A stretch of 64,000 bases of DNA from Raillietiella orientalis (Eukaryota): the NCBI GenBank assembly GCA_036172245.1, contig JAYWIR010000004.1, positions 2,232,001-2,296,000 of the forward strand, given 5' to 3'. Position numbers and translations under genes: made by a program. Below, one piece after another: positions 16,001 through 64,000 of the stretch; the first letter of the stretch is position 1; each line of letters starts with the position of its first letter. Under the pieces are notes generated by a model. That model was not told where the DNA came from, searched no databases, and saw nothing but the letters and a program-made list of their open reading frames with translations.

Positions 16001-16888
16001 TAGCATCCCCCCGTTTCTCCTGGTCTTCTGACCGGAATTCACCGCTCAGGGATCCGATTCAGTCACATACTACGCCTGGACACATCAAGGCCTACGATGC
16101 TTTTTCTCTGCATGAGATGCATCATATAGAATATGCGCAACCAACACGAGTGAACTCTGGCAGTGTCAGTTGATGAGCTGGATTCACCGTTTTAGAGAGA
16201 AGAGCGCAACCGAATTGCGGCTCTGGAATCAGGTTGCAGCTCTTCATTCATGCCACCGGGGCACGACACACACGACTCCGTGGTGCGAAACAGTTTCGAA
16301 AAACGGAAAGAAAGGGATCCAAAAGAGAACTGGAAACGCGGTTTCAAATATCCTGAAACCGGAGTGCGTGTTGCGTGGTCATACCGACCTCAGAGTGCAG
16401 TGAACACAAATGGCCTCACCTTGGATATTTTTCGTTTCCCCACATGGAAGTGATACGACGCAAACAGCTGATATGCACAAAAGATTAAATGCTGCGGATC
16501 CTACAATAGTTCCTGGTCCAAGATCTCCAGCTTCAAAATTATTTCCAATAATTTCTATAACTGATAAAAGAATTTCTGGAGCCGAAGAACCCAATGCCAT
16601 CAAGGTCAAGTTAGCAACCGTTTCATTCCATATCCTCACTTCCAAAACTTCTGGCCGATCCTCAGCCACATCACTTAACACGATTGTTTTTGTCACACTG
16701 GTTATTCTTTCAATGGAACTCATGAAGATGTCAGCAACTATAGATATTCCGAAGAAACAGTACAGGAGGCCAACAAGATAAAGGAATGCCCGTATATGGA
16801 CAGACCAAGTAAATTCATTGCATACCGGCAGGAGTAACCCCGCTTTTGAACATGTGTAGTTTTCGAATGTTCCTTGTGTGAGAATCAT
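3900..16888 (-). CDS. Sodium/calcium exchanger (NCX/Calx, SLC8 family), 5' part of a multi-exon gene; continues beyond the left edge of the window
   Basis: Exons 16888-16420, 11355-11116, 10270(or 10266)-10152, 6351-6243, 4063-3900. They encode the alpha-1 repeat (NETVANLTLMALGSSAPEILLS..GPGTIVGSAAFN), TM4/5, the HSRNWYRINATR segment and the start of Calx-beta domain 1. GT-AG ends and phases agree, except that the exon 2/3 junction is ambiguous. Confidence 0.93.
6243..6351 (-). CDS. NCX coding exon 4
   Basis: tttttaag|G ATT..; IIWSTPHSRNWYRINATREMTGSRKLLPRPSDISLK resembles the NCX KSRAFYRIQATRLMTG motif; donor AAG|GTAAGG. Confidence 0.88.
10152..10270 (-). CDS. NCX coding exon 3 (start of cytoplasmic loop)
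   Basis: EGELLNIGSLDHKPLIRFFREIKKNPDLTDEDAAMLAAAK; donor AA|GTAAGT, phase 2, matches the next exon. Confidence 0.8.
11116..11355 (-). CDS. NCX coding exon 2 (TM4-TM5)
   Basis: Acceptor tctttccag|CA restores the phase; FKVFIVTSSFSIFAYLWLLFILSGTSPDVVEIWEAATTFLFFPILVIFAFVMDK; the 3' boundary (CCAG|GTTTTC) is less certain. Confidence 0.9.
15029..15049. repeat. (AT)n microsatellite
   Basis: atatatatatatatatatata. Confidence 0.85.
16420..16888 (-). CDS. NCX coding exon 1 (TM1-TM3, alpha-1 repeat)
   Basis: ORF 16379-16888 contains RAFLYLVGLLYCFFGISIVADIFMSSIERITS and LMALGSSAPEILLS; donor CAAG|GTGAGG (phase 1); in-frame stop upstream of the ATG. Confidence 0.95.
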
Positions 16889-19800
16889 TCCTACTGTTCT
16901 CCAGCACTACGCGTCATTTGCAATGTTTCCGGAAAGCCATTGAACGCGAGATCACGGCATCGAAATCTTCACTTGTGCGAACTGGGCTACGCACTACTGA
17001 TGCGTAAGTGGGAAACCAAACACTTTCAAGTCATCAGAACGGTACTCTCTCCGTGCAGTCACTTCGGGTTGAAGATCACGGAGCCGTAAGCGCTCTGCGC
17101 GCACACAGGACGGCGTGCCGACTTACACTGCAACATTCGCCCGCGGGCTCGAGGACGAGATTCCCCCTTGCGTAACAGCGAGTAGCACAAAGATCACAAT
17201 TTGTTCGGCTGGCGATGCAGAAAAAAATGCGAGGGCGTTAAAAAGGGTTCCTCCTGTGTGTGGCTTAGAAAAAACAACTCTATCCCAACCAACAGGATGG
17301 CTGGTGGCGGAGGGCCATCAAATCTTGAAAAGACAGAAGACTCCGCGAAAAATTTCAATCCGCTTTTGGGGCAAAAGAGACGGCAGGGGATATGAGTTAT
17401 CATTTTACTTCGGAGTCGAAAAAGAGCTGCAATTTCGCCGATAGTACAATCCGATTCGAAGAGCGATTCTCCAGAATCATCGTACCGCAGATCCAGAGAA
17501 AAGCACAAGAAACTAAACTAAACTAAACACAGAAAACTAACAGATTCAGAAGCGAACAGCATCCATTTCATTTCGTCCACAAGTTCCCGTTTCCCACCTA
17601 GTCCAGTTCATGCTCTGGTAAGAGTTGTCAACGCACCATTGTCCAAGAAAGAAATGGAATCCGAATGAGCTCTGCCCAAGGAAGTAGAGATAATATCTTT
17701 CTCCTCATTTGCACAATTCTGAGATTAGGTTGATTCGAGCTGCTGCATTATTCCTGAAATCAAAGCGTGACTTTCTGAAAATACTTTTACATCGGCCATT
17801 AAAAAATGCATTTTTATAGAGTTTTTTAACAGATAGGTCTGTAACCGATAGGTCCAAGTAAAGTGGACTTCTCACCTACTCGTAAAAGCCTGCTTTTTCC
17901 CCTCTCATGCTAGATTATCTTCCCCAGTAGGAGACTTAGATTTGACAAGAGACGTTCGGTGTGTTCTGGTTTTTGACGAGGAGTGCAAGTTGGAAATGGA
18001 TTGCGGATGAGACACCAGAAGCATGTAGCAGGAAAGTTCTTCAAAACTAACGTGGAGGAAAGATTTTAAAGAAGGAGAAAGTATTCGTTGCATTTACAGG
18101 CCGCATCCAACAACTCCGAAGAAAAGTAGTGAAAATCATAGTCCCAGAACTGTCCCAAAATTCCCAAATAGTAAAGTACAGGGTCTACAGCGCCCCCAAC
18201 TGATGATATTGGTGTATTCAGATCTGCAACAAGGTGTGCGTCCGGAAAATTTCAAGAGTCTCGAGGCTTCCAACTTTACGCGTGTAAAGTGAATGCTTGC
18301 TCTCTAGGAATCAATGGACTCCACCGAACAAGCATCTTGCAGAACGTTTGTCAAATCATTTCACTGCACATCCATAATTCAGTTGATGGGAAGAAAAAAT
18401 TAAACAAGAGTGTTAGTGAACATTGGGTAAGACAGCAAGAAAAAAAGCAAAGATTCCGGAGGGGGGAGGGGGGGGGGGGAACGTACAAATAAAAAATAAG
18501 ACTAATAAGAAAACACAAGAATAATGAAACTATCAATAAAAAATAGGACTATTCGGGATTGCCAACAAGAATAATTCGTGACTTCAGAAGGCAAGAATAC
18601 CAAAAAGGAATCAAGATGGCCATTAGATTTGCAAGTAGCTGCCTCCTAAAAATCCACAATAGATAGAGACCCTTTTAGTTCGATCTAATTAGTTTCCCTA
18701 GCTGATTAATAGAAAACCTTTCCTTTAGAGAGTTCTTTCATATGATAGCACTGATTTAGTTATTAGTGCAATTAACGAAGAAAATAATTGTTTGCGGCAA
18801 TCGACGATTTAATGTAATCTGAAAAGGAAGAAACAGTCGAGCGAATTTGACTTCATGAATGTAAGATTACAGAGCTGGGATGGATGCAAGAAATGCAACC
18901 TTAGAAGTAAACATGCATGAAGGAATCCTTTCCTACAAGTTCAGACGCAAGACATTTAAGGGAAGACCTCGCAGTTTCCGTGAACCTGAGAAGAGAACAT
19001 CCTAAGGATACTGAATTTTTCATGAGATAGATAAGAGCACGAATGATAATGAGCTAGAATAAGAGATTAAAGTATTCCTGAAATTTAGATCTATAAAACG
19101 ATAAAGGTAATGGATTTTAATCGCTATAAATAGGTTGTTTTTTAGTTACGGAACAAGATGTTGATTACAGTCAATCCATTACTTTTCAGTTGCATTTTGG
19201 AACCTTTAGGAGTTGCAAGAATGCAAACAGACATTAAACAACATGGGCTAGACATTTCTTACTATATAATTCTGAATGTTTCTAAACATTACTGAATTTT
19301 TCCGTCCATAATGTTGACCGTTCTGCATTGTTGTAAGTGATAAGAATTGTCATCAAAGTTTACAACAGTTTTATGCTTGATTTATGATAGCTACTTTCTA
19401 TTCTACGAGGATTATTCTTCTTATCATCTCAATCTTCGTTGTTGGAGGAGTTTCGTGATAATCATACTTATCAAAGATCCTGACGAAGTATGCTTTCATC
19501 AGGATCCCTTTTGATTCGAATCCCAAGAAATTCTCATGTTAAAATGACACTATATCAATACGAGTTCAGTAGACTGATCGCTCCGGAGTTGTATCGAGAA
19601 AATTTCCATTTATTTATTCTTCAATTCCTAAATCGTTTTTTTCTTTCTTTCCTTCTTTTTTCCAATGCACTGGTTCTATTCAATTCACAATCCTGATGAT
19701 TTCTAATCACTGAAAAATCTTTGTCGAGTGATGGCTTTTTGTACCCTATTTTTGTTTGAGAAACAATTCTCCGATGCTGAGAACAGGTCAATGATTCGTT

Positions 19801-26000: not shown

Positions 26001-28738
26001 AGTATATAAAAGAAAAAAAATAAACGGAAAACTTTGTTCAAAAGTGTGTATAAATGATGAAACAAAAACAAATTCAATTTGTAGTATTCTCTTATGGGGA
26101 ATTTTTCAGTTAATTGTTTCTTACCATTTAAAAAATGCTCTTCTGAAGTTTAGACACTCCTAATTCTTTCCAAATTTAAACAGGTGTATTAGTGTATCAC
26201 TTCAAAATTAGCTTTTTAAATCTTGCAGAAATGAACGTGCATTTGAACTGAGTGGGTAATGGGGAATATAGCAGAAAGTACAAAAGTTTTGAATAACTGA
26301 TAACAATAAAAATACTACGATGGACAAGATTAGTATGTAATTTTTTCATTTGGATGCTATGAAGTACCATTGCGATTACATGTTTATGCCATTACATAGT
26401 TTGTATTATATTATTCATACATGTTTTTTCAATTTTTAATACAGAAGTATAGTTATAATAATTGCGATATGCATGTCAAGTGAATGTAGATGGTTTGCTT
26501 CAGCTTTTGTCTGTATGCTGCCAGCAAAAAAAGGTGCTTTGTTGCCAGAGAAGTGTGCTGAATTGGGATTAAATCCAGGGCCTGAATTTGCAAAATTGAA
26601 AGCAGGACAGTCCGTAGTTTTGAGCGATGGCACTTTAATACAGCATGCAGATGTATGTGAACCAGATCAACCAGAATATTTTTTCATTGGTAAAATATGA
26701 TGATTTCTGTTTTTATGTGAAAATGTAGTTTTTCTCTTAATTCATTAAAGAGATGTAATTTAATTTAGAATACTTTTTCATATTATATTGCTAATTTAAT
26801 TTATTAAATATAACTCTATTATTTTGAGTCCATAGTTTGTTAATTTTTTTATAATTAAAAAGTCTTAAATTAATTTCCTTGGCATCAAATTAGTATTTTG
26901 AGATTTATTTCATTTTATTATCCTATGTGAACTAAGAATATTTTTAAAATGAAATTTTTGTTCTAGTTTTGGAATGTCCGAATAAGGACTATTTACCATC
27001 ACTTTTGAAGTCTTCACAATTCTTAGAAATTATGGACAAATCTCCTGAACATCAGAAATTATTATTTGTTGCTCATTTTAGTTCTGTAGAAGCAATGAAT
27101 GATTCACGATATCAAGAATGGATGAAGAAATTTCCCACTGACACAAAACATCTAATTTTGAATGATTTATGTAATGATAGTGGCTCAAATGCAATTCATA
27201 GAATGCAGTATAAACTCAATATGATTGATGAAAATATCTTTCCTGCATTGAAGACTCTTTCAATTAAGGCTCATGGTGAAGTGAATGGAGATACAAATGT
27301 TATTCTTGGAGAAACAATGATGACACATGTGATATGGCCACATGTTGAATTACGCAGGTGATATAAGATTGAAGAATAGTCATTTTTTCTCCTCTTCATT
27401 TATTTCTCTTTACTGGATAAGGTGTAGCCATTTGTATTTCATTCAAGTGATAGGTGTTTTTCTCCATAAGATCTGAACAGCCATTTGATATCAATTTTGA
27501 TGAATGTCGAAATCAGCTGGAAGAAATTTCCGGACTGGAGGAAGCCTTGACAGTTAGTAAACAGAAACTCAATTCGATAGAAGATGACAGATCTCGCAAA
27601 AAGTTTCCTAAAGTTTTGTTTCTGGGAACTGGTTCTTCTATTCCAAGTAAAGCTCGAAATACAAGTGGAATTCTTGTGCAGATCAGGTGTGTATAATTAA
27701 GAATTTCGAGAATTGGTAGTTTTGAGATATAATTATTGAAATAAAACAAAACTGCTATCTTGAATATTTACACAGTTTCTAATTCAACAATTTTGATTTA
27801 TTTGATAGCAATGATGTAGCAATGCTGTTGGACTGTGGAGAAGGCACACTGAACCAAATGTATCACTTTTATGGAAATGATGAATTTTATAATATGCTTG
27901 CAATTCTCAAGGCTGTATATATATCTCACATGCATGCTGATCATCATATTGGCGTAATAAGTTTTCTTCTAGAACGTGCGAAAATGTTTGCATTACAAAA
28001 CAAACCAATTGAACATTTAATACTATTTGTTCCCAAAACAATCATTCCTTGGTTAAAGTATTTTGATGAAATTGAACCACTTCTTCAAAATGTCACTCTA
28101 ATAACAAATTGTCAACTAATGAATGAAAGATCTTCAGATGTAGTCTTGCAATCTTTGAGTTTGAAGCAAATACAGACTACCTATGTGCATCACTGTTATC
28201 AAGCATTTGGTGTTTCTTTGGTAACTAATGATGATTTTAAATTAGTGTATTCTGGTGACTGTACTCCAGATAGTAGACTTGTTAAACTAGGTAAGTCGCA
28301 CAAGTTCTGAAGGTATGCTATTTCTCTAGATTACAGGAAGCAACTGTAACTTGCTTATCCATGAGGCAACAATGGAAAATGGCTTGGAATCTGAAGCAAA
28401 ATGCAAAATGCATTGTACCCTTTCACAAGCCATCCGTATTGGAAAAGAAATGAATGCTGAATTTATTCTTCTTACACATTTTAGTCAGAGATATGCTCGA
28501 ATACCTATGATTGGTGATCTTGATGAAAATGTCAATGTAGGTGTTGCTTATGATTTCATGATTGTAAGTCAGATGAAAATAATCGAGATTCATGTTCATG
28601 TGTGACCTTATGAAGGTATCCCCAGAAACCATTTACAGATTGCCATATTATCATGCTGTTCTTATGAAAATGTTTAGTGCATATTATGAAGTGATGCAGG
28701 ATCGGACAGAGAGGAAAAGAATTTGTACTGGAAAATAA
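22741..28738 (+). CDS. ELAC2: Ribonuclease Z long form (tRNase ZL, zinc phosphodiesterase ELAC protein 2), complete 9-exon gene, 762 aa
   Basis: Exons 22741-23072, 23411-23597, 24753-24897, 26504-26689, 26967-27357, 27471-27686, 27809-28290, 28337-28563, 28616-28738 (2289 nt, in frame). Motifs: YLFNCGEGTQR, GP flexible arm (GLNPGPEFAKLKAG), FLGTGSSIPSKARN, LLDCGEGT, ISHMHADHH, YSGD, HEAT, LTHFSQRY. Confidence 0.97.
23411..23597 (+). CDS. ELAC2: ELAC2 exon 2
   Basis: YLFNCGEGTQRL..HIFITNNSWKNLGGLPGL; catag| and |GTGAGT boundaries. Confidence 0.95.
24753..24897 (+). CDS. ELAC2: ELAC2 exon 3
   Basis: ENMFDKIRHFAP..DTFNDGLLKVESVPL; tttatag| and T|GTTAGT boundaries; phases fit. Confidence 0.8.
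26504..26689 (+). CDS. ELAC2: ELAC2 exon 4 (flexible arm/exosite)
   Basis: FVCMLPAKKGALLPEKCAELGLNPGPEFAKLKAGQSVVLSDG; phase-1 acceptor gcttcag|CT. Confidence 0.9.
26967..27357 (+). CDS. ELAC2: ELAC2 exon 5
   Basis: VLECPNKDYLPSL..VAHFS..YQEWMKKFPTDTKHLILN..QYKLNMIDENIFP. Confidence 0.93.
27471..27686 (+). CDS. ELAC2: ELAC2 exon 6
   Basis: FPKVLFLGTGSSIPSKARNTSGILV (PxKxRN loop). Confidence 0.95.
27809..28290 (+). CDS. ELAC2: ELAC2 exon 7 (catalytic His motif)
   Basis: MLLDCGEGT, ISHMHADHHIG, VHHCYQAFG, KLVYSGD. Confidence 0.97.
28337..28563 (+). CDS. ELAC2: ELAC2 exon 8
   Basis: LLIHEATME..HCTLSQAI..LLTHFSQRYARIP..AYDFM. Confidence 0.96.
28616..28738 (+). CDS. ELAC2: ELAC2 terminal exon
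   Basis: VSPETIYRLPYYHAVLMKMFSAYYEVMQDRTERKRICTGK*; AATAAA overlaps the stop codon. Confidence 0.85.
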   Translation, partial: VSPETIYRLPYYHAVLMKMFSAYYEVMQDRTERKRICTGK

Positions 28739-30080: not shown

Positions 30081-30947
30081 CCCTTTGCACTCCCCTGGGC
30101 TCTGCTGAGGGGACATTCAAAATGGCACCAAAGATCCACTGGCTCCGCTGAGGGGACATGCGTTGCGTTAATGCGTTAGAATGGGACCACAGTTATGCAT
30201 TCTTTACATTGCAGACCAAAAATATGCAACCTTTCGTCGGCATGCAAAGTGAGTGCGAACAAGAGCCGTGATCGCTCGCAGTTCCCTGTTACAGGTCGCT
30301 TCTCTGCAAACATTACACTCTGTACGGTGGCAACCATGATTTCTTAAAGTTTGATCGTTTTCGAACAGGTCCACGACTTTTCTATAAAAGTTGCTCCCTA
30401 ATTGCCATCAGTCAGCTGCAAAGCAAGTTTATAGTAAAGGCGGATAAAGAGGAAAGGGATTATGAAAATTTCGAATGGAGTGATAGTGAAGAAGAACTTC
30501 ATTCATACCTAGTTGATGACAGTTCAACTGATATCGCATCCGAAGATAGTGCTAGTGATGATGATTCTGGAATTCGTTCTAGTGATGGCGCAATTATTGC
30601 GGAACGGCGACGGAGAATCGGAATTATTGAGAGTGAAAACTCTTTCGGAGAAGATGAATGGGCCGATGGAACGGATGGCAAAGGGATTCCCAAGAGGATT
30701 AATTTTACAGTGTCGCCCAGGGTCACTGGACCACGGATTGCATGCAATGCTGTGGAACCAATAGAATGTTTCTAGTTATTTTTCACAGAAGAGCTTGTGA
30801 AGGGGATTATCGAAGAAACCAACAGCTTTGCAAAACATCTGACGAATGAACATTTTTAATTTTTTTTTCTTTCACATTTTTGACCCTTTCGAAAGTGTGC
30901 TGGAGTTGCTGGTCGGTCGTGTCAACAAACACTTGGAGAGCAAAGGG
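30081..30947 (+). mobile_element. Non-autonomous (internally deleted) piggyBac DNA transposon, copy 1, 867 bp
   Basis: Ends CCCTTTGCACTCC ... GGAGAGCAAAGGG (12/13 inverted match), flanked by TTGA and TTAA; subterminal direct repeat CTGAGGGGACAT x2; carries a transposase N-terminal relic. Confidence 0.85.
30437..30858 (+). pseudogene. piggyBac transposase N-terminal fragment
   Basis: Acidic N-terminus, then W..P...FT...G....PIECF*LFFTEELVKGIIEETNSFA, typical of piggyBac transposases; no ATG, one internal TAG, catalytic domain deleted. Confidence 0.75.
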
Positions 30948-32568
30948 TTAAATTGCTTCCGAGTGATGCCGCTACATGCAGCAACAACATGCAAAGTCTC
31001 GCAATGTTCGGTTTCGTCAGCGGAATAGCGTCAATCTCGTCAAACGTTAGTGGACCTCAGGACGTTACGGTTTGGCGTTAGACGTAGTGATTACATTCAG
31101 CATGCATTAAAGATTTCTAAAACCTATTATGGGCATACAAACTGCTGTGACATGTGTGTGCCTCATACTGAGCTGAACCCACTTCATAATATTCGCAGTA
31201 AAAACTGTGTAGTCATACGAACTGATTTCTGTCGAATACAATTTCATATTCATTATGTTGTGATCTTGAAGTGATTACGACGGTGATGGCTTGAGAATAT
31301 GAAGGCCTTGACTTTACAAGATGTTCTTGAGCTTCCTGAAATTATGAAATGATTCGAGAAAAAAAAAAAACATGTAGAGGGGATCAGCTTTGCAAAGCGA
31401 ATGTAATTTCCGGTTCCTAAAGCCAATGATGATTCTCCGTTGAATCCCCGATTTGAGATAGGTAGTGCCCATCAGGTGTACTTTGCTTGATGTAATGTTT
31501 AATTTTCAAATTCGTTTCCCTTTAGCCAGGCGTTTTTGGCGGATCAATTATTGCAAGCAACAAAAGAAATGATGCACTAAAGATGAAGCTCTCGAAGTGA
31601 TCAGCTGTACCAAAAGTTGAAGAATGTCAAACCAGTGTTGCAGGTTCCATTTCATATCAGATGCACTGACTGACTAGGAAGCTGCGTTGATGCTGTTGCC
31701 GAGTACTTGCGTCGTGATCCGTTCTACGTGGATGATGTGTTGCAGGTTTATGATCCAAACTATTGAAAATCGATTTCGTATTTTTCGATAGATGGCATAG
31801 ACGTGTCCTTTGATCACCGTTATTTTTATTTCTTCCATAAACAGCTACTGGATTGCTCAACTACAAAAGCTTATAAAAACTCATAGGATAACGGATACTC
31901 TTGTATTCTATTTCAGTATTATGGAGTCTGAGCAAATAAACGATAATAAGTTTGTATCTGTATACTGATTGTTATCTGAGGACCACAGAAGGGTAGAAAT
32001 CTTTAGATACTGTAATGGAAGTGGCGATAGGGGAAAAAAAAATTTTTTTCCCTCAATTCTTAAAGGATGCATTTAACATGGTGATTTTTCTCGATGCTGC
32101 TAGCGTTCCACCTTTCTTGCTTTTTCTTAACCCTTATTTATAAAGATGGATCATATTGCACGTTGAAAAAGCAGTGAAAAATGCGTAATTCTGTGAAGTT
32201 AGCAAGCAATGTCCGAGCTGGGAATCGAAATGAAAATCCTTTCAGTCACACTCTGGTTTGAGATTATGGATCATATCCTCTTCTGCGTCAAAATCAATTT
32301 TCGTGATCATCAGTATTAAAGTAAAATTTACGAAATTCCAGGAAAAATGTCTTGAATAGCAGATGATTCTTTTCTTCTCACATTCCTTCTAAACATGCGC
32401 GGCTTCAATTGCACTGTTGGTCAGTACGGTCAGGATGGTACGAAAGGTCTTAGGTTCTTTCCAAACTGGATAAGCTGTTTGGATAATTTCAACAATCTCA
32501 TTCAATTCAACTTTTCTCAGTATCTCATTCTGTTTTTTACGGCTTTGATTTTTGAATATATTCTTCAA

Positions 32569-33415
32569 CCCTTTGCTCTCCAAGCGTTTGTTGACACGAC
32601 CGACCAGCAACTCCAGCACACTTTCGAAAGGGTCAAAAATGTGAAAGAAAAAAAAATTAAAAATGTTCATTCGTCAGATGTTTTGCAAAGCTGTTGGTTT
32701 CTTCGATAATCCCCTTCACAAGCTCTTCTGTGAAAAATAACTAGAAACATTCTATTGGTTCCACAGCATTGCATGCAATCCGTGGTCCAGTGACCCTGGG
32801 CGACACTGTAAAATTAATCCTCTTGGGAATCCCTTTGCCATCCGTTCCATCGGCCCATTCATCTTCTCCGAAAGAGTTTTCACTCTCAATAATTCCGATT
32901 CTCCGTCGCCGTTCCGCAATAATTGCGCCATCACTAGAACGAATTCCAGAATCATCATCACTAGCACTATCTTCGGATGCGATATCAGTTGAACTGTCAT
33001 CAACTAGGTATGAATGAAGTTCTTCTTCACTATCACTCCATTCGAAATTTTCATAATCCCTTTCCTCTTTATCCGCCTTTACTATAAACTTGCTTTGCAG
33101 CTGACTGATGGCAATTAGGGAGCAACTTTTATAGAAAAGTCGTGGACCTGTTCGAAAACGATCAAACTTTAAGAAATCATGGTTGCCACCGTACAGAGTG
33201 TAATGTTTGCAGAGAAGCGACCTGTAACAGGGAACTGCGAGCGATCACGGCTCTTGTTCGCACTCACTTTGCATGCCGACGAAAGGTTGCATATTTTTGG
33301 TCTGCAATGTAAAGAATGCATAACTGTGGTCCCATTCTAACGCATTAACGCAACGCATGTCCCCTCAGCGGAGCCAGTGGATCTTTGGTGCCATTTTGAA
33401 TGTCCCCTCAGCAGA
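32569..33415 (-). mobile_element. Non-autonomous piggyBac copy 2, inverted, lacking the first 20 nt (left TIR)
   Basis: Reverse complement of 30101-30947. The ORF-track translations of the two arms are identical, and I saw one substitution near the right end. The right end GGG is flanked by TTGA. Confidence 0.9.
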
Positions 33416-54400: not shown

Positions 54401-55764
54401 TTTTCTTTTGTAAGACAATGGTGGAGTACACAGACCTGCTGATGACCATCATAACCATGTAGATGTATCCACTCAGTCATCACACAATTACAGTCAAAGT
54501 GCACAAGCATCTCCAACCAACACTTTACGTTCTTGGAGACCACGTGCAAGGAGTGCTGATGAAAGCAGCAAGAAAGACAAGTTATCGTCTGCTAGAGAAT
54601 CAGAAATTGAAGACTGGGAAATTCCTATAGAGGAAATTTTAATTGGTCCTAGAATAGGATCAGGATCTTTTGGAACTGTATATAGAGGCCACTGGCATGG
54701 TCCAGTAGCCGTAAAAACTCTCAAAGTAACTGATCCTACACCTGCACAACTACAAGCATTTAAAAATGAAGTTGCAGTATTACGTAAAACAAGGCAAGTA
54801 AGGTGTTTGTTACACACTAAATCCATTATTCTTTGCTTTAGACATGTTAATATACTATTATTTATGGGCTGTGTGAGTAAACCTCAGTGGGCCATTGTAA
54901 CTCAGTGGTGTGAAGGATCCAGTCTATATAAGCATATTCATGTTTTAGAAACCAAATTCGAGTTGCTTACCTTAATTGAGATTGCTCGTCAGACTGCACA
55001 GGGCATGGAGTAAGAGTCTAAATGATATAAAAATCATTACTTTTCATAGTTATCTTCATGCCAAGATGATAATTCATCGAGACTTGAAGAGCAATAATAT
55101 TTTTCTTCATGACGATATCACAGTCAAGATAGGTGATTTTGGATTGGCTACTGTGAAGACACGCTGGTCAGGATCTCATCAGTTTCAGCAACCCAATGGG
55201 TCAATTTTATGGATGGCACCAGAAGTTATCCGAATGATCGATTCAAATCCTTATAGTTTTCAGTCAGATGTCTATGCATTTGGAATTGTTCTTTATGAAT
55301 TATTCAGTGATCAGTTACCATATGCACATATTAATAATAAAGATCAGGTGAGAGTTTGAAGATTGCATATTCTATTTGTCCTTTGGTTTCTTCTCCAGAT
55401 TCTTTTTATGGTGGGAAGAGGTTATCTAAGTCTAGATCTCAGCAAACTTCATTCAGATACACCACTGGATGTGATCCAGCTAATTGAGAATTGTACTAAT
55501 TTTATACGAGAAGAACGTTATTTGTTTCCTCAGGTAAGCAGCCTTTGCAACTATGAAGGTAATGTGAATCCTTTGTAGATTTTATCAAAACTGGAATCCC
55601 TGATACGATTTTTACCACGAATTAAGAAGTGTTTCTCGGAACCAATTCTAAATTCATCTCACTTGCAGAATGATGATTTTTTGTATGCATGCATTTCTCC
55701 CAAAACCCCCATAAATAATCAGTATGGCGCCTTTCCCTTTTTTACAATAGGTCATATTCTTTGA
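48330..55764 (+). CDS. Raf: Raf serine/threonine kinase (B-Raf/D-Raf type), complete multi-exon gene, 734 aa (744 with micro-exon)
   Basis: Exons 48330-48434, 48588-48689, 48768-48948, 50346-50551, 51392-51493, 52006-52166, 54003-54184, (54262-54291), 54415-54793, 54842-55009, 55050-55347, 55399-55533, 55579-55764. Domains: BRS helices, RBD ([11 protein letters not shown]), C1, CR2 (RSTSAPNV) and kinase ([38 protein letters not shown]). Confidence 0.97.
48588..48689 (+). CDS. Raf: Raf exon 2 (BRAF-specific region)
   Basis: [34 protein letters not shown]. Confidence 0.92.
48768..48948 (+). CDS. Raf: Raf exon 3
   Basis: [19 protein letters not shown]; ttcag| and G|GTAATT boundaries. Confidence 0.88.
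50346..50551 (+). CDS. Raf: Raf exon 4 (Ras-binding domain)
   Basis: [43 protein letters not shown]. Confidence 0.95.
51392..51493 (+). CDS. Raf: Raf exon 5 (end of RBD)
   Basis: [24 protein letters not shown]. Confidence 0.93.
52006..52166 (+). CDS. Raf: Raf exon 6 (C1 cysteine-rich domain)
   Basis: [37 protein letters not shown]. Confidence 0.95.
54003..54184 (+). CDS. Raf: Raf exon 7 (CR2 14-3-3 site)
   Basis: [10 protein letters not shown]; exact boundaries somewhat uncertain. Confidence 0.85.
54415..54793 (+). CDS. Raf: Raf exon 8 (kinase N-lobe start)
   Basis: [64 protein letters not shown]. Confidence 0.96.
54842..55009 (+). CDS. Raf: Raf exon 9
   Basis: [42 protein letters not shown]. 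Confidence 0.97.
55050..55347 (+). CDS. Raf: Raf exon 10 (catalytic loop, activation segment)
   Basis: [55 protein letters not shown]. Confidence 0.98.
55399..55533 (+). CDS. Raf: Raf exon 11
   Basis: [24 protein letters not shown]. Confidence 0.95.
55579..55764 (+). CDS. Raf: Raf terminal exon
   Basis: [40 protein letters not shown] at 55833 and 56052. Confidence 0.92.
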   Translation: MLSKLESLIRFLPRIKKCFSEPILNSSHLQNDDFLYACISPKTPINNQYGAFPFFTIGHIL

Positions 55765-56069
55765 CAGCCAGGGAAGATAGATGCTTTATTGTAAGAATGT
55801 TTATGATGGTTATATGATTCTATTTGTGGTTGAATAAATCTATAGTAGAAGGCTACCTGGTTTTTTGTAATGTACCCAAGATTTTTAATTTCAGTCCAGA
55901 AGTGCTTATTGTGTTGCGAATTGGAATTTGTATTCTTGTTGTCATTGCTGATATGTTTGCTTTATTAATTGTAGTTCATCCGCTTCTTTTTTTCATAAAT
56001 CCATTTATTAGCTACTCTACAAAAAAGACAGCTTTTGTATGAAATGTTAAAAATAAAAAGACATGCTAT

Positions 56070-57739
56070 TTCTATCCATAGCTCCAGCAGCAAGCTTAAC
56101 ACAAATAGCACTTTGATCAGCATCTACAAACTGCTCACTATCTGTAGAAACATTCATTAACCATCACCACTGGGATAATGAACAGAAGACACTTATGCAG
56201 GTGGCTCACTTTTTGCTTTTCTATGTCCAAAGAAAAAAAATTTAGGGGCAGATGGTTTTTCATGGCTTTTCACAACAACCTACAGGAGCACTTGCACTTG
56301 AAGACATTGAATAACATCCTGGTTTTTCATCACCTCGATCAAGAGACTTTTTAGGTGACATCTTCATTCAAAGCCAACCTTTTTGACACAAAACACCACT
56401 CCTATGCTCCTTTTCCAGAGATTGATTACTAGGTTCCTGTATATTTTTAGCAAGTGCCAGTAACTGTGGCCTATTAGGTTTCTCCTCCAGAGATCCACCA
56501 CAGGCCCCCTGCATATTTTCATCAATATCTGATCTTCCACTCATTCTGGGAGCATCTAACAGGTTTCTTGCATTCATTTGCAACATAGAAAACCTTGCCA
56601 CCAACTTGGCCCTGGGAGACCCCTTCTGCGCTGATACTTCATCCAATAACTGACTAGGAAGCTCAAAATCAATCTCTATTTGACCACTACTCATTGATTA
56701 CAGAGTTTTCTATAATCGCAGGAATTAAAAGCACAATTTGTCTATCGGAAAAAGCATATACACCACCAAATCCACCTGACTGTGTGGCTTCAGTTTGACC
56801 TCTAACATTAGGCAAAAGATCATGACGAAACTGGGCATTAATATTATCTGACTCCATGCAATACATGTACCTAAAACTACTACCATCCCTGACCATAGGT
56901 ATAAAAGCAAAGTGATCTCCTTAACTTACTCCATCTTTATCAATAAACTCATCATAGTAATATCCATAAATTGGTATTCCAGTTAAAAATCAGATTAGCT
57001 GGCACATGGCATTTTTGTAGCTTTCAACTTTTAAATCAACATTGCTTGGAAAGTTAAAGTTATACCGTCTCCTTTTTAAAAACCTCTGTTACACTTCTCA
57101 CAAAACCAATATCTTTAAAACACATCTTTAATATCTTTAAACCAATATCTTTAATGCCATCAATATGATAGAAATCTAAATAATTATAACCATACTCTTG
57201 CACTTTTGCTCGAAGTACTTCTACAAAATACGCTGCACATTTGGACTATCAAACAACAAATATTGTATATAATGAGACGACCCGCTTATTGACACTGGTC
57301 TTATACTTTTGTTTAACATCTCTTCAATAAGTTTTTTATCCACATGAGTTTTTTCATTAATTTTTGTAATTACCAGTCTTTTTATAGTAATTCTGAATTC
57401 CTCAGCGAAGTGCAATTTGAGATTAAAGATTATTCCAGAGACCCTAGGAACTGTAAGCTGAGCTGCTACTTTGCTATGCGTCCACCTTTCTTCATCGGAA
57501 TTAAACGGAAAAGATGCAAGATGGAAAGTGACGAGCTACAGACTCATACGAAAAATATTCCCTACCAAGTCTCTTGCCATCTGTGATAAATAACTCTGTG
57601 CAGCGCGCCTATCACACTTAAAATTAACGACTATATTGTTGCCCTCCACAACAAAATTAGTACTGGTTTCGGAACAGTAATTACTGATGTTAAATCCAGT
57701 AACTAGCTGCTTAAGAAAACCCAAATTATATCCACTCAT
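56070..57739 (-). pseudogene. Intronless disrupted ORF, putative Wolbachia-like (endosymbiont-derived) hypothetical protein gene
   Basis: Adjacent ORF-track pieces 57536-57739, 57221-57415, 56687-56896 and 56368-56694 join into one protein-like reading through isolated stops and about 3 frameshifts. The taxonomic origin is my recollection-level inference. Confidence 0.5.
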
Positions 57740-59641
57740 AACTAGGAAGCGATGCTTGATGAGAGATATTAGCTCAAAGTTCGTACACCAAGTCAGCGCA
57801 TATCAAGGATATGTACGAGGGTTGCCAATGCAGTATATTTGTATTGATTTCAGATTTTTACAATTGTTTACTAAATGCAGTGTCCGTGTTCCAATTCTAA
57901 ATGATACAATTTGTTCCGCGGTTATCAACAGGTTTCCCGACACTTTGCCAGAAATGAGTGATATTCCCGATGAAACAGTTTTATTGTTGTGGAATGGCTG
58001 TTATTTCTTACGTCTGACGTAGTCTAGTTTTAGAATATATAATATTCTGTATACTAAGTGCTTCATGACTTTTAGGTGTCAGTCGACCCTATGCGTTCAT
58101 TCATCCAATGGAAATAACGGGGTTACGTGCGCGCTTGCCGCTTTTGTTGTTTACGTTCCCAAATGGTTTCATGTTGCATGTCGATGCTTCTTGCATCTTC
58201 CAACGGAAAACATCATTAATGAGGGTGCGTTCAAGGTGGAAGCTTGGTTTGGAATCATTAGATCATGAAAATGTTTCTGATCATCCTTATTTGAATTTCG
58301 AAGCACAAGAAGAGACAAGATTTTTGAGCATGTGAAGTATTAGTTCTTTGGTTGTATCTATCTTTTTTTCACTTGTGTCCCCTCTCCATAAGTTTCATTA
58401 TGATGTGTGTCATCAATGAAGAAGCACTCGGGAGTATAATGAGCATAGGGGTGCGAACATACGGTATTTCGAAACAGATCTAACAAGCCCACACGTTTGC
58501 CATTTTGAGCATGCTCTTCCCTGCTCACGGCATTCATCTGCTCAGTCTCGAAACAGATACCGACTTGTGTTTAAAAAAAAACAAAAGAAACAAATTCCGC
58601 ACCCTCAATAGACGGAAACGTTTCTGTAGAATGAATCCCTTGAAATGGGAAGATAAGATAAAATTGCAAACTGGAGCTTCGAATATTCCGAGATTGAAGA
58701 TGACCAGAACGATGGCATGTGAATATTTTCGGTACAGTTTACACCAAACTTGCGTGTTTTCTCTTGATGATCCCCTCTGATTGCCATTCCTTTTCTCGTA
58801 TCTGAACTCTGTAATTTAGATACGTGTTGCAATAATGCACTTAAATTGCAGCAGTGGTCCCCAGACTGCTTGCGAAGCAGAGCCGTGCAACCTTCGAACC
58901 TGAAGACGATGCAATTTAATGTTGGTAAACGACATGATCTTCCTGTTTTCCAGTCTAGTAAACGTTTTTTTTCTTCTTCTGACATCACCCTTCACTCACT
59001 TCTGTATTAAATATTTGCCGGATAAGCCTTGGAATTCAGACACATGGTCCTTACAACATGCGTTTCGACCTGCTTGATGGTAATACTTGTTATGGTGAAT
59101 GCTTTAGTCAGTGTACAGCTTTCTCTTCTCGTACTCTGAGTCAAGGCTCATAAACGCTGAAAAAATTGTGTGAGTCTCAAATTTCATAAAATTCTATAAG
59201 TGACTCCCAACATAAGTTTCCCTGGTCACATTTAACATCCGTTCTTCTACGCAACATTAAATAAAATGTATCCATCAAATTGGAGAGTTAGAGTATATAA
59301 CTAACTTTCTGATCCTTTTTAGATCCAACATAGATCCAATCCTTTTTAATTTAGAAATCCATATGCACTTATGGGATTATTCGATAATAACCATTACCGT
59401 CAATGTAGTAAAAAACAAACATTTGAACCATTTATGCCGGAAGTGATGTCATGATATGATTACTTCTGTGTAGCACTTCCAAAAATATAGAATCTTTAAA
59501 ACACTATCAAAAAATAAGTAGGTTATAGCAATCAATCCCTTTTTTTTGTTTGTTTGTTTTACTTCAACAAATGTTGAAAGCTAAGAGTATTCAAGAATAG
59601 TATCTGATTTCATCATATGAATATTTCTTCTGCTATGCATG

Positions 59642-59660
59642 CACACACACACACACACAC
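59642..59660. repeat. (CA)n microsatellite
   Basis: cacacacacacacacacac. Confidence 0.85.
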
Positions 59661-62600
59661 CCAAAGCAGTAGCATACAGTAAAAGATTACAAAGTCATCA
59701 ACTAAAATGTAGTGGCGATTTTACCACAGTATTCCAATTTGAACTGCAGTGTGTCTTAAGAAATGAAACATCTTGCACTTCATCTTGCAGCTTTTCTATC
59801 ATTTAGGGCTCACAATCAGAAATCTGGTATCGCCCAGGTGTGATGCAAAAAGCATTCTGGACGGAAATTATCCAGCGAAAGTTTATTTTACAATCTGGAA
59901 AGGGTCAAAAATAAGCATGATTGATTAATAATATGATTTCATACAGTCTCTATTATAGTCGTTTTAATTGACTGAATTTTCATCTTTGCATCAACCACAA
60001 TAAGGGTCCGTGGAGAATCCTACACATTCCCAGAATCCTAAAGATTTTCCATAGATCTTAACATATCGCTCAAAATAGAGAATCGGTTTTCAACCTCATG
60101 GAAATGTTCCGTGCAGAAAATAATATGACAGAGCAAAAAAAAAATCCACAGGAAAGAAATAAACGGAAATGAGTCTGAGCGGGTCCATTTAAATGCGAGC
60201 AGCATACAACGAATATGGCACAGCTAAGTGTTGAAACACTTATTTAGAATGCTCCAAAAGTAGAAGAGGAATTCCATAAAACATATAGAGCACACGTCGC
60301 GTTTCCCACTATAAATATAAGTTCAATAAAGAAAAGTTGTTTCTGATCCGTATCTGAGTTCCTTCTGCAAAAGATCTACGAAATCAAAACTGTGCATAGT
60401 GATGCTCCATAGTGATGCCTTAGTCTTCAGAGTTATATGGAACTCCTTTTGCGGTAGTTCTTATGTACGTGATTGAAAGTATTCAGATCACAGAATTTCT
60501 ACGGGAGCAGGGGTTCATATGATCTCTTTTTGTTGTGTACATTTGAGGGATCAGTATGCTGCTTGTCACTTGTCATTATAAAATGATCATGTATGTTGAT
60601 AAAATGATTGCTGCCTCAGGAGAAAATCAGCAAGTTCTAGACACTTTTAATTTTTCTTTTACATTGGATGGGAAGTTATTCATCCTTAAAGAATCATCTT
60701 TGAATTCCGAAGAAAGAATACATTTCGAGGACAGTACTTGAAGGGGGGCACTTATAATTTCATAATTTCAAACAAATACAAGGTATCGATAATATGGTGA
60801 GAGTTATCATGATATGATTTTTGTCATTTCCACGGAGTAGGCCTCGTGCTTCATAATTGATGTTAACTGTTCACAGAAATGTGTTAAAGAGATGCAATGC
60901 AAATCTGATCGGTTTATTTTGAAAAATCTAGTTCATCGATTTGTATTTCCTGCAACTTTGACAGTAGCAATAAACGAAAGAATGAAAATTTAAATTTTTG
61001 AAATTTGATTGCAACTCTTTCACGTGGCTGCTACACCTCGCCTCACCCCAAGTCTAGGCAAACAGTGTAGCAGAAAAATTAAGATAGGACAGAACTGCCA
61101 AATTCTTTGATAGTCGTTCAAATTAACAGACATAACTGTTGCTTCACAATAATTCCGTTCTTAGCTCTTATTTATATAAACGCAATTACCACCGAGTTTT
61201 TGTATCTTATTTTGATTTCGATTTTGCAGCTGCAACTGTTCGAAGTAGTTTGTCAGATCAAGATGGAAGGGTAAAGGTCAAGCATTCCTGAAGATATTAA
61301 AGAGCAATGTCTTACTTCAACCTCATACTCCTTAATGTAAGTGATCAGGGGGTTCAAGTGTTTTGAATGTGCAGATCTTCTAAGCAATTGTGTTTAATTC
61401 AAAAGAAACCTGTACTGATTTTTGGATGGCAGTTTTCACTGTAAATCTGATACTGTTAGAAATCATTCAGCCAACAACGGTACAATCATTATGATCGGAC
61501 TGATGTCGACGTTTTTGATTAGTGGCTTCAGTATTTGATACAACCCTTCAGGATTTTCGTATGGACGATTACTCCAATAGTTGTGGAGAGGCAGTGTGGA
61601 ATTTCCAACCTACCAACAGCAATAATCGAGTGATCTATAGGGGATAGTGTCAAGATTACTTCTTCTGAATCTTTGCTTGATTTTATCTTTCTTAGAGCTT
61701 GATATGCAGTTCATACCTAAAGATGAAATCAATTCTAACCTCCAAACTTTTTGAAACTTATCAAATCCTACTAATCTTATTTATCTTCCCATATATTGAA
61801 TTCAATCCAGGACAGCTTCTTAGGAATACCTGAATAGATGTCTCAGTCTTTGAAATTGCTAATTTGATGATCTCATTTATCTTCCGAAAAAACCTCACTG
61901 AATCCCTGCTTCCAAAGTGCTGCAACTGATGTACACCACGAATCAATCCGTGGAACACATTGTGGACAGCTTAATTTTAAAGGGATCTGTCCACATATAC
62001 CGTTTCCTTGAAGACTTTTTGTGACACAAAGGTAATAGAACATCCATAGTGGCTTACATCAAGTTATTCCAAACATAGCTTGCACTGAAGACCCACGATT
62101 ATCCAACGTATATTATAAAGGCATTGGAGAGAAGTATTTCTTAAGGATGCCAGCGTCTTCTCTATTTTTCTCCAACAATCCTCTTGACTTTCACAGCAAC
62201 GAGATTTCTTATCTTTGCACGTGTCCCAGATATTGGAGATTCTTAATCAAAGCCTGACAATTTGTAGAACCAACTTGCAGTTCTGTACAAAGCTTACAAA
62301 AACTACAACTTGGTTCAACCCACTTTGTATGCGGTGTCACTGAATTTGTCGTTGTGGTATCTGATAAACCAACGAAAGTGGAGCATCAAAGGTAGCACCT
62401 AACTTTCATCGCCCAGAAGAAATAATGTGTATGAAACTTTATTGGATGAGCTCAATTCCTTTTCAGTACGTTTCTTTGTATTCACATAGGCGTATTCATG
62501 TAAGTCGATAGGATGAAGGTCGAGTTGCTACCGCCAAAGTGTCAGTGGCATTCCCGTCTTCTAAATGTCAGTAGCACACGCAAGGCTATCAAAAACAGAT

Positions 62601-63149
62601 TCTGTTGTTGTTGTTCCCTCCGCTACTTGCTGTTGGTTCTTGGTATTAGTTTGATTCTGCTTCCTTGATAAGCCACGCCTTCGATGCATGCATTTTCTGG
62701 TATTCGTTTTTGTATCTAAAACTTATCTTTATAACTCATGTTGGTACGTTGGAAGTTTATGCTTACGCAGCTGTTTGCGGGAAGGTGGGGAATTTTGGAT
62801 GGAAATCACCTTTTGTCTGCAGATGGGTAAGTTGCTAACGACACTTATCCTTTTGGATAAGTGTCGTTTTTTCAGCTGGGCTTTAAGTAGTTCCGGCACT
62901 CTTTCACAATAGAACCGACTGTTTCTTTATGATGAATCGATCACATTGCCTTTTCCTTCCGTAAACCCCATCGATCAGTCTACCCACAGCCTCATCACTA
63001 ACAAACTACATTGAACAGTTCGATATAATGAAAACACTAAAACAAACGCTTTGTGTTTTCTTCATTTTCAGGCTATTGATTCGGAGACTGAAGTAGAGTT
63101 GGTATCATTATAGAGTTGACATGACCCAGTTTTCCTTACTAACTCTAAC

Positions 63150-63500
63150 CAAACCAGTTGTGCCAGTTTGCTTTTCCCTTTACACGGAAGAGAACTGACT
63201 TATTTTTATTACCATTTAGAACCCGAAAACTAGGGTCCGAAATCGATTCAAAAGTTCTTTCACCGGGGTGTGAATGAGAGCGTTCTCGAGCACCGTGGAG
63301 CATGAAAGCATAGGCATGAAGTGGCGACACGCAGCTCCACTGTATCCGTTGGCATGGTGCTACCGCTCCAGCACAGCAATTCCCATCTCTGGTCTTACTG
63401 CTCTAATAATATGATGCTCAAAGATCATTTCCGAGATCTTCAGGAGTAAAAGGGCGACAACATCTCTCAGAATTGTTGGTCTCTTAGGTGAAATAGGGAA
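63150..63500 (-). mobile_element. Degenerate LINE RT remnant
   Basis: RPTIL..KISEMIF, QWSCVSPL (QGSVLSPL-like) and LNGNKNKSVLF in RT order; heavily decayed. Confidence 0.3.
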
Positions 63501-64000
63501 GAGAATGTGCTGTTGCCTAGTGTCCAGCGATGTGCAAAACCGTTTCGGAAATGTACACTGACGAATCGGATCTGATCGGTTGCAAACGGACTCAACATAA
63601 ATGTGAAAGGTCATATCGGCAACACTTCCTACATGAAGCGGAGTAAAAGCATTGTAAAGTGGACTGATCGGAATAGCGAGCCCAGTTCCAGTTTGGTTGC
63701 AACGATCGGAACGATTTTGCACCAAAAAAATGAATGTGCGATTGTAAAGCAATCCCAGTCACTCACTGTATACATAGGAAAGATTTTTGGCCTAGTGTGA
63801 GCTGCATGAACACTCAATGATTAAAAAAAACGACGGATGACATTACGTAATTCTATTCACTCCTCCCTAGACACAAAAGAAGTCTGGGAATGTGTAGAGA
63901 TCCCAAAATAAATAATAATTTGAAATAAATAAGCAACAGGGGAGAAAGTGTGAACTGGTATTTGAGCTCGCAAGAGGCAACGAGAGACCAATCTCCATCT

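Follow-up and report, generated by a model that had tools for sequence, protein, structure and literature searches.

Results

The Raf locus and its surroundings

The window analysed here, a 64-kb stretch of DNA in which all positions below are counted, is eukaryotic. Its plus strand carries the last exons of a host Raf kinase gene (54414-55764), recognised by matches to arthropod Raf proteins and by Pfam kinase domains: the open frame at 54414-55013 (+) matches arthropod Raf proteins with E-values down to 1e-112 and with 66-80% identity among the best-scoring matches, which include Daphnia, crickets, termites and damselflies; the open frame that follows it carries the Pfam protein-kinase domains. 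Raf ends at a TGA stop codon (55762-55764), and two AATAAA signals lie 3' of the coding sequence, at 55833-55838 and 56052-56057. Downstream of Raf is a decayed copy of a Wolbachia gene (hereafter the fossil), about 1.6 kb long and running from 57739 to about 56160 on the minus strand, and between the two lies a shorter Wolbachia-type intergenic repeat stretch (55969-56089, no strand assigned). The Raf coding sequence ends at 55764 on the plus strand and the fossil occupies the minus strand; the arrangement is therefore tail to tail, with 400-600 bp between the fossil and the Raf stop codon. An earlier note on this DNA had described the neighbour as Raf, inserted against in just this orientation, and the exons, the stop codon and both AATAAA signals (55833 and 56052) bear it out.

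On either side of the fossil the DNA runs for kilobases without bacterial character, Raf being on one side. On the other, no dense (bacterial-type) open frames and no Pfam matches were found between 57800 and 64000, nor any recognisable host gene between 57744 and 64000; the sole ground on which we label this far flank (57744-64000) host DNA is that it is without bacterial features. Comparison of the flanks (55400-60500) with the rest of the window revealed no repeats, a search of 55500-58500 against Rfam gave no match, and Pfam searches with seven fragments of the window returned sub-threshold noise only. Base composition does not separate insert from host: the GC-content of the insert (0.34-0.37) overlaps both that of the flanks (0.31-0.38) and that of the Wolbachia orthologues (0.31-0.35).

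The window has other features of its own. Host exons occur at 16379-16906 (-), with a sodium/calcium-exchanger domain (Pfam E-value 4e-16), and at 27783-28310 (+), with a weak match to the beta-lactamase fold (E-value 9e-4, below the cut-off) that possibly marks a tRNase Z-like gene. The segments 30101-30952 and 32564-33415 are inverted copies of each other (99.8% identity over 852 nt), and both contain the same 167-codon, acidic and serine-rich frame with no Pfam match; this may be a transposon-derived gene in two copies, or a fold-back of the assembly. The first 6,000 positions have a GC-content of 0.48-0.57, compared to 0.27-0.46 in the rest of the window, and many overlapping open frames on both strands.

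Extent and parts of the fossil

Homology to Wolbachia begins four nucleotides before the ATG, at 57743, in both blastn searches and the DNA alignment. Upstream of this point no similarity was found, either at the DNA level against 60 Wolbachia-genus genomes or with two translated frames of 57744-58022 against the same genomes. The first part of the fossil (56690-57739, minus strand) corresponds to about 350 codons of a conserved N-terminal domain and is recognised by tblastn, blastn, codon-level DNA alignment and tree. The second part (56160-56689, minus strand) is the remnant of a variable, probably disordered C-terminal tail, recognised by collinear matches to the tails of Wolbachia proteins. 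Its frame differs from that of the N-terminal domain and switches again below 56370. Within it, 56685-56611 matches the Wolbachia family proteins P0129, P0250 and P0133; 56571-56374 matches residues 578-647 of P0008 (E-value 0.002); 56261-56160 weakly matches residues 585-620 of P0005; and two further segments, 56184-56222 and 56283-56315, align collinearly with family-gene tails from two other Wolbachia genomes (G013 and G058). Solid homology thus reaches to about 56374 and weaker collinear homology to about 56160, the tail below 56374 containing at least one further stop and frame change.

The peptides quoted in the earlier note (MSGYNLGFLKQLVTGF..NIFRMSL and LVTFHLASFPF.., followed after shifts by KCAAYFVEVLRAKVQEYGYNYLDFYHIDG, DLKVESYKNAMCQLI and DFELPSQLLDEVSAQKG) are present where it placed them. 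Also confirmed is the Wolbachia-like nature of the stretch around its PSxxLDEVS motif (GQIEIDFELPSQLLDEVS against GQIEIDPGLPRTLLTEPS), which matches the start of the variable tail in three Wolbachia proteins. The relic of more than 450 codons that the note had drawn as far as 56070 is real as a gene copy; its collinear homology ends near 56160 and does not demonstrably extend to 56070.

Lesions in the gene copy

Lesions were read from a nucleotide alignment of the fossil with four Wolbachia orthologues. In the fossil the frame is shifted by five indels; the copy also has an insertion of 15 nt and two or more in-frame stops. None of these lesions occurs in the four orthologues. The first two indels, which remove 1 nt near 57563 and 2 nt near 57525, enclose a stretch of about 38 nt, or some 12 codons (57525-57563, minus strand), that matches the orthologues only when read in the shifted frame. 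It is in this stretch that the TAG at 57536-57538 sits. The earlier note took this codon for a stop in an otherwise continuous frame; the TAG is there, but it is a product of the shifted frame and not a nonsense substitution. A second out-of-frame stretch, of about 56 codons (57066-57234, minus strand), is similarly bounded by the loss of 1 nt near 57234 and of 2 nt near 57066. It carries 15 extra nucleotides (11 + 4) tied to a 16-nt direct repeat, the two units of which (57103-57118 and 57139-57154) are the only occurrences of this 16-mer in the window; none was expected in 100 shuffles. These units account for the small internal duplication at 57103-57155 that the note had seen. Two in-frame stops follow on the minus strand, a TGA at 56990-56992 and a TAA at 56921-56923, both quoted correctly in the note and both occupying positions that hold a sense codon in each of the four orthologues. 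The fifth indel is a 1-nt insertion at 56687-56689 (minus strand) that creates a TAG together with a frameshift at the boundary between N-terminal domain and tail.

The longest stretches that remain open are 104 and 109 codons in length, the frame being broken so repeatedly that no intact open reading frame survives. Judged from its sequence, the Wolbachia gene copy is dead: it has at least eight breaks and would not be able to make the family protein.

The manner of decay was approached through the distribution of changes. Changes at first, second and third codon positions number 30, 22 and 36 in the fossil, 16, 19 and 16 in the orthologous locus L004, and 21, 18 and 17 in L003; a bias toward third positions is apparent only in the close pair L001 and L002. 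Since the long Wolbachia branches are as flat as that of the fossil, the test is uninformative with respect to relaxed constraint. Over 1,057 aligned columns the fossil lineage carries 88 private changes, compared to 51 and 56 in the two nearest DNA comparators, a surplus that fits extra neutral change and gives no date. We also considered the possibility that the two compensating pairs of deletions (-1/-2) reflect selection for the reading frame, and rejected it: pairing of this kind arises by chance about 1 time in 4, and each shifted stretch contains stops.

Similarity to Wolbachia

For protein searches the query was 56687-57088 translated straight through, the two stops being written as X. 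It returned six matches, all of them bacterial, with E-values of 1e-48 to 3e-38 and 57-71% identity: three are from Wolbachia, one is from a metagenome-assembled genome of the Rickettsiales, and two are without a source name. In the genus search the Rickettsiales genome (G039) grouped with Wolbachia. Conversely, tblastn of Wolbachia proteins against the window gives a single high-scoring pair that runs from 57739 or 57727 to 56690 (E-values 1e-80 to 5e-104). The fossil is matched at an E-value of 1e-3 or better by 73 of 110 family proteins tested, the best of which cover residues 1-350. At the DNA level, 57743-56646 is 71-76% identical over 1083-1113 nt to four Wolbachia loci (L001-L004), the only long DNA matches among the 60 Wolbachia-genus genomes. 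Identity between the N-terminal domain of the fossil and the Wolbachia family is 46-53% by single-frame tblastn; after frame correction, with X at the breaks, the nearest family protein is 64% identical. A tblastn search of a phage collection with the N-terminal read-through translation gave no match.

To place the fossil, the frame-corrected translation was combined with 33 of the 110 family proteins (first 400 residues each) in a maximum likelihood tree of 34 rows (quick search, SH-aLRT support only). The fossil falls inside a starred, well-supported clade of 10 rows comprised of Wolbachia proteins and Logan/JGI sequences without a source name. Its nearest rows are proteins of Wolbachia group A, with which it groups at a support of 86, a grouping drawn open. 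Its end branch is long (0.44, compared to a median of 0.21), and the donor Wolbachia lineage is one that has not been closely sampled. The origin in Wolbachia or Anaplasmataceae suggested by the earlier note thus holds: all six read-through matches are bacterial and the fossil lies within the Wolbachia clade.

The position of the fossil within the Wolbachia tree, taken together with the distribution of the family, indicates a transfer from Wolbachia to host. The opposite, in which a host or transposon gene was acquired by Wolbachia and the window holds the eukaryotic original, would require the window copy to stand outside the diversity of the Wolbachia sequences; in fact it nests inside. Moreover, the family is present in 51 of 60 Wolbachia genomes, there is no eukaryotic name among 20 clusters looked up, and the copy in the window is intronless and broken. 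Nothing was found that favours the reverse direction, and we regard it as having a negligible probability.

The parent family

A profile built from six members detects 106 representatives (at 50% identity) among 1.84 billion proteins. Twenty of the clusters were looked up; 15 have a source name, which in every case is Wolbachia, and none is eukaryotic. In profile searches 51 of 60 Wolbachia-genus genomes contained the family, often in several copies; of the remaining 38 genomes from the bacterial family to which Wolbachia belongs, three gave matches, all of them weak and N-terminal. The gene family is thus nearly Wolbachia-specific, and it is fast-evolving. Members include WP_265040591.1 (group A, from Ectemnius continuus), WP_236514407.1 (from Delia radicum), WP_015589226.1 and GOY07_02420 (wLsig). 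Tails and flanking regions differ greatly between Wolbachia strains; in one filarial Wolbachia the gene stands among the housekeeping genes for cytochrome b and c1, uvrB and rpoD. Searches of a literature library by six member accessions or locus tags found no printed study of the family in it.

Pfam and NCBIfam contain no match for the parent family, the ESM Atlas no usable one, and the family profile meets PDB sequences only at E-values of 0.022 or above, in the tail. An AlphaFold2 model of a 439-residue member, built from 61 aligned sequences, has a mean pLDDT of 85; values exceed 90 for most positions from 1 to 350, and the tail comes out as disordered. On this model the intact family protein is predicted to have a confident fold over an N-terminal domain of about 360 residues, followed by a tail that is long and variable. 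Foldseek comparison of the model to PDB and BFVD gave nothing at an E-value of 0.001 or better. LAGLIDADG endonucleases top both lists weakly (PDB: E-value 0.064, TM-scores 0.13-0.25; BFVD: E-value 0.0056, TM-scores 0.13-0.17), and these homing endonucleases, with their alpha-beta-beta-alpha-beta-beta-alpha core, are absent from the rows returned by VIA-align. A wide VIA-align search of 48,161 chains reached a best Z-score of 5.8 over 67-87 residues, below the noise level of the tool (7-8); the rows tied at this score include domains of Legionella lpg1496. Because a domain with a disordered tail, rapid evolution and restriction to a genus occur together, our guess is that the family protein could be secreted and interact with the host.

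Some variation in copy arrangement was noted among living Wolbachia. Three genomes (G047, G053 and G056) carry identical family genes as inverted pairs, with about 5-7 kb from one start to the other. Several genomes have an N-terminal module of about 150 residues repeated directly downstream of the family gene, and one protein (P0007) has such a module at its C-terminal end.

The short repeat and the limits of the transferred piece

The stretch at 55969-56089 has DNA matches to seven of the 60 Wolbachia-genus genomes, at 70-85% identity over 40-128 nt (E-values 1e-8 to 4e-4); six of the seven Wolbachia loci were fetched and re-aligned. The sequence that it resembles is an intergenic repeat of about 100 nt, present in one to four copies in four of five Wolbachia genomes searched. 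The six Wolbachia loci that carry it match no Rfam family. Among the repeat loci (L009-L018), one case adjoins ankyrin-repeat genes. Window positions 55969-56089 appear, from these alignments, to be a diverged copy of this Wolbachia repeat, within which the second AATAAA signal of Raf (56052) falls. Elsewhere in the window, the fossil apart, no similarity to Wolbachia was found at an E-value of 1e-5 or better; this includes positions 1-50000, for which scoring covered five candidates per genome. Likewise, the flanks of the four Wolbachia loci carrying the family gene, two of which are 22 kb long, have no further match in the window.

The repeat may be the 3' flank of the gene in the donor, carried over as part of the transferred piece, or it may be a separate shard. 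If the latter, then the insert would be a mosaic of at least two Wolbachia fragments, the gene and the repeat, joined at integration; this is a variant of the nuclear transfer set out below. In none of the Wolbachia genomes checked does the repeat adjoin the family gene, the nearest case being some 7 kb off (in G030), and between 56160 and 56089 no homology to Wolbachia was detected: both facts are as a mosaic would have it. Against this, the gene itself is collinear with Wolbachia over about 1.6 kb. In addition, family tails and flanks vary greatly between strains, and the donor may therefore have carried the repeat right after the gene. We consider a mosaic possible, though on balance unlikely.

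Contiguity with the host chromosome in the assembly

At the level of the assembly the fossil has host nuclear DNA to either side of it, with Raf at one end and the non-bacterial far flank at the other. One DNA sequencing run provided three identical 151-nt contigs, two inside the fossil (56524-56674 and 56681-56831) and one beyond it (59475-59528). They bridge neither junction, and the contiguity of Raf and fossil accordingly rests on the assembly.

Wolbachia reads are common in arthropod sequencing projects, and with no junction spanned by the contigs of this one run it is conceivable that a stretch of living Wolbachia was wrongly joined to host contigs. Several features of the insert speak against such a chimera or contamination. 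All four orthologues are open over the 1.05 kb in which the fossil contains five frameshifts and at least two in-frame stops. The insert is a single gene cut four nucleotides before the ATG, and comparison to 22-kb Wolbachia loci revealed none of the neighbouring genes. The nearest known protein is only 64% identical, and kilobases of non-bacterial DNA lie on both sides, with Raf on one. The earlier note had held that disruptions and host flank together argue against contamination, and it was right to do so: the lesions are missing from four orthologues, Raf is close by, and searches of the far side detected no bacterial similarity. An assembly artefact is in our estimation highly improbable.

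Discussion

Origin and fate of the fossil

The stretch beside Raf is of bacterial origin, nests within Wolbachia, is damaged by lesions and has a host gene as its neighbour. By far the most probable explanation is that it represents a nuclear Wolbachia transfer (NUWT), a defunct gene copy that in the assembly is contiguous with the host. Some 1.6-1.8 kb of Wolbachia chromosome would have been joined into the germ-line DNA of an arthropod. The piece would have comprised approximately one gene, from four nucleotides before the start codon through the variable tail, and would have come to lie on the strand opposite to Raf, a few hundred bases past the end of that gene. Integration would have occurred by non-homologous end joining during the repair of a chromosome break, which is the generally assumed route for transfers of this kind. 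Thereafter the copy would have decayed neutrally and free of constraint, and it is probably a fossil without present function.

It might be asked whether the host has nonetheless put the fossil to use, as a source of antisense or small RNA that overlaps the 3' end of Raf, or of a short peptide. The tail-to-tail arrangement, the position of the AATAAA at 56052, inside the Wolbachia-like repeat stretch, and the remaining open frames of 104 and 109 codons would suit such a use; lesions, however, are spread along the whole length of the fossil, and we think any such use very unlikely. A more specific form of the idea is that the fossil, which extends toward the distal polyadenylation region of Raf, is transcribed with, or antisense to, the 3' end of that gene, and that small RNAs made from it target Raf itself or the corresponding gene in a resident Wolbachia, so that the host would keep a 'memory' of a symbiont protein. 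The suggestion stems from the geometry, and we would give it very little credence.

Read as a nuclear transfer, the fossil is the scar of a past or present Wolbachia infection in the arthropod lineage, and it could help to reconstruct which Wolbachia lineages infected the host, and when. For annotation a caution follows: the stretch beside Raf should not be called a host gene. Nor should it be discarded as contamination, since the Raf locus would be broken if it were. The parent family occurs almost throughout Wolbachia, and its domain, predicted with confidence, matches no solved structure; the family is therefore a reasonable target for work in the living bacterium.

Comparison to known systems

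Transfers from Wolbachia to host are reported from arthropod and nematode genomes, among them those of Glossina (PMC3998919), Drosophila ananassae (PMC4558871) and filariae that are free of Wolbachia (PMC2882956). Most NUWTs, according to PMC12693587, are non-functional and evolve neutrally with small indels; the mean sizes given there are 434 bp for Onchocerca and 2,038 bp for Brugia. The fossil resembles them in being Wolbachia DNA in a host chromosome, in its probable lack of function and in its small insertions and deletions, and at about 1.6 kb it is inside the size range reported there. It is set apart by consisting of one collinear and almost complete gene, which begins very nearly at the ATG, and by its parent, which is not a housekeeping gene but an uncharacterised Wolbachia-specific family. 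With the hypothetical proteins of that family it has in common the N-terminal domain and the start of the tail; unlike them, it carries no fewer than eight breaks. Insects may also retain acquired bacterial genes in working order, as in aphids, where they are reported to be intact and expressed (PMC2687425 and PMC2829048). The fossil shares with these functional genes a bacterial origin and a nuclear location, but unlike them it is not intact. NUWTs are a well-described kind, to which the stretch beside Raf adds one ordinary case of symbiont DNA lodged in the chromosome of its host.
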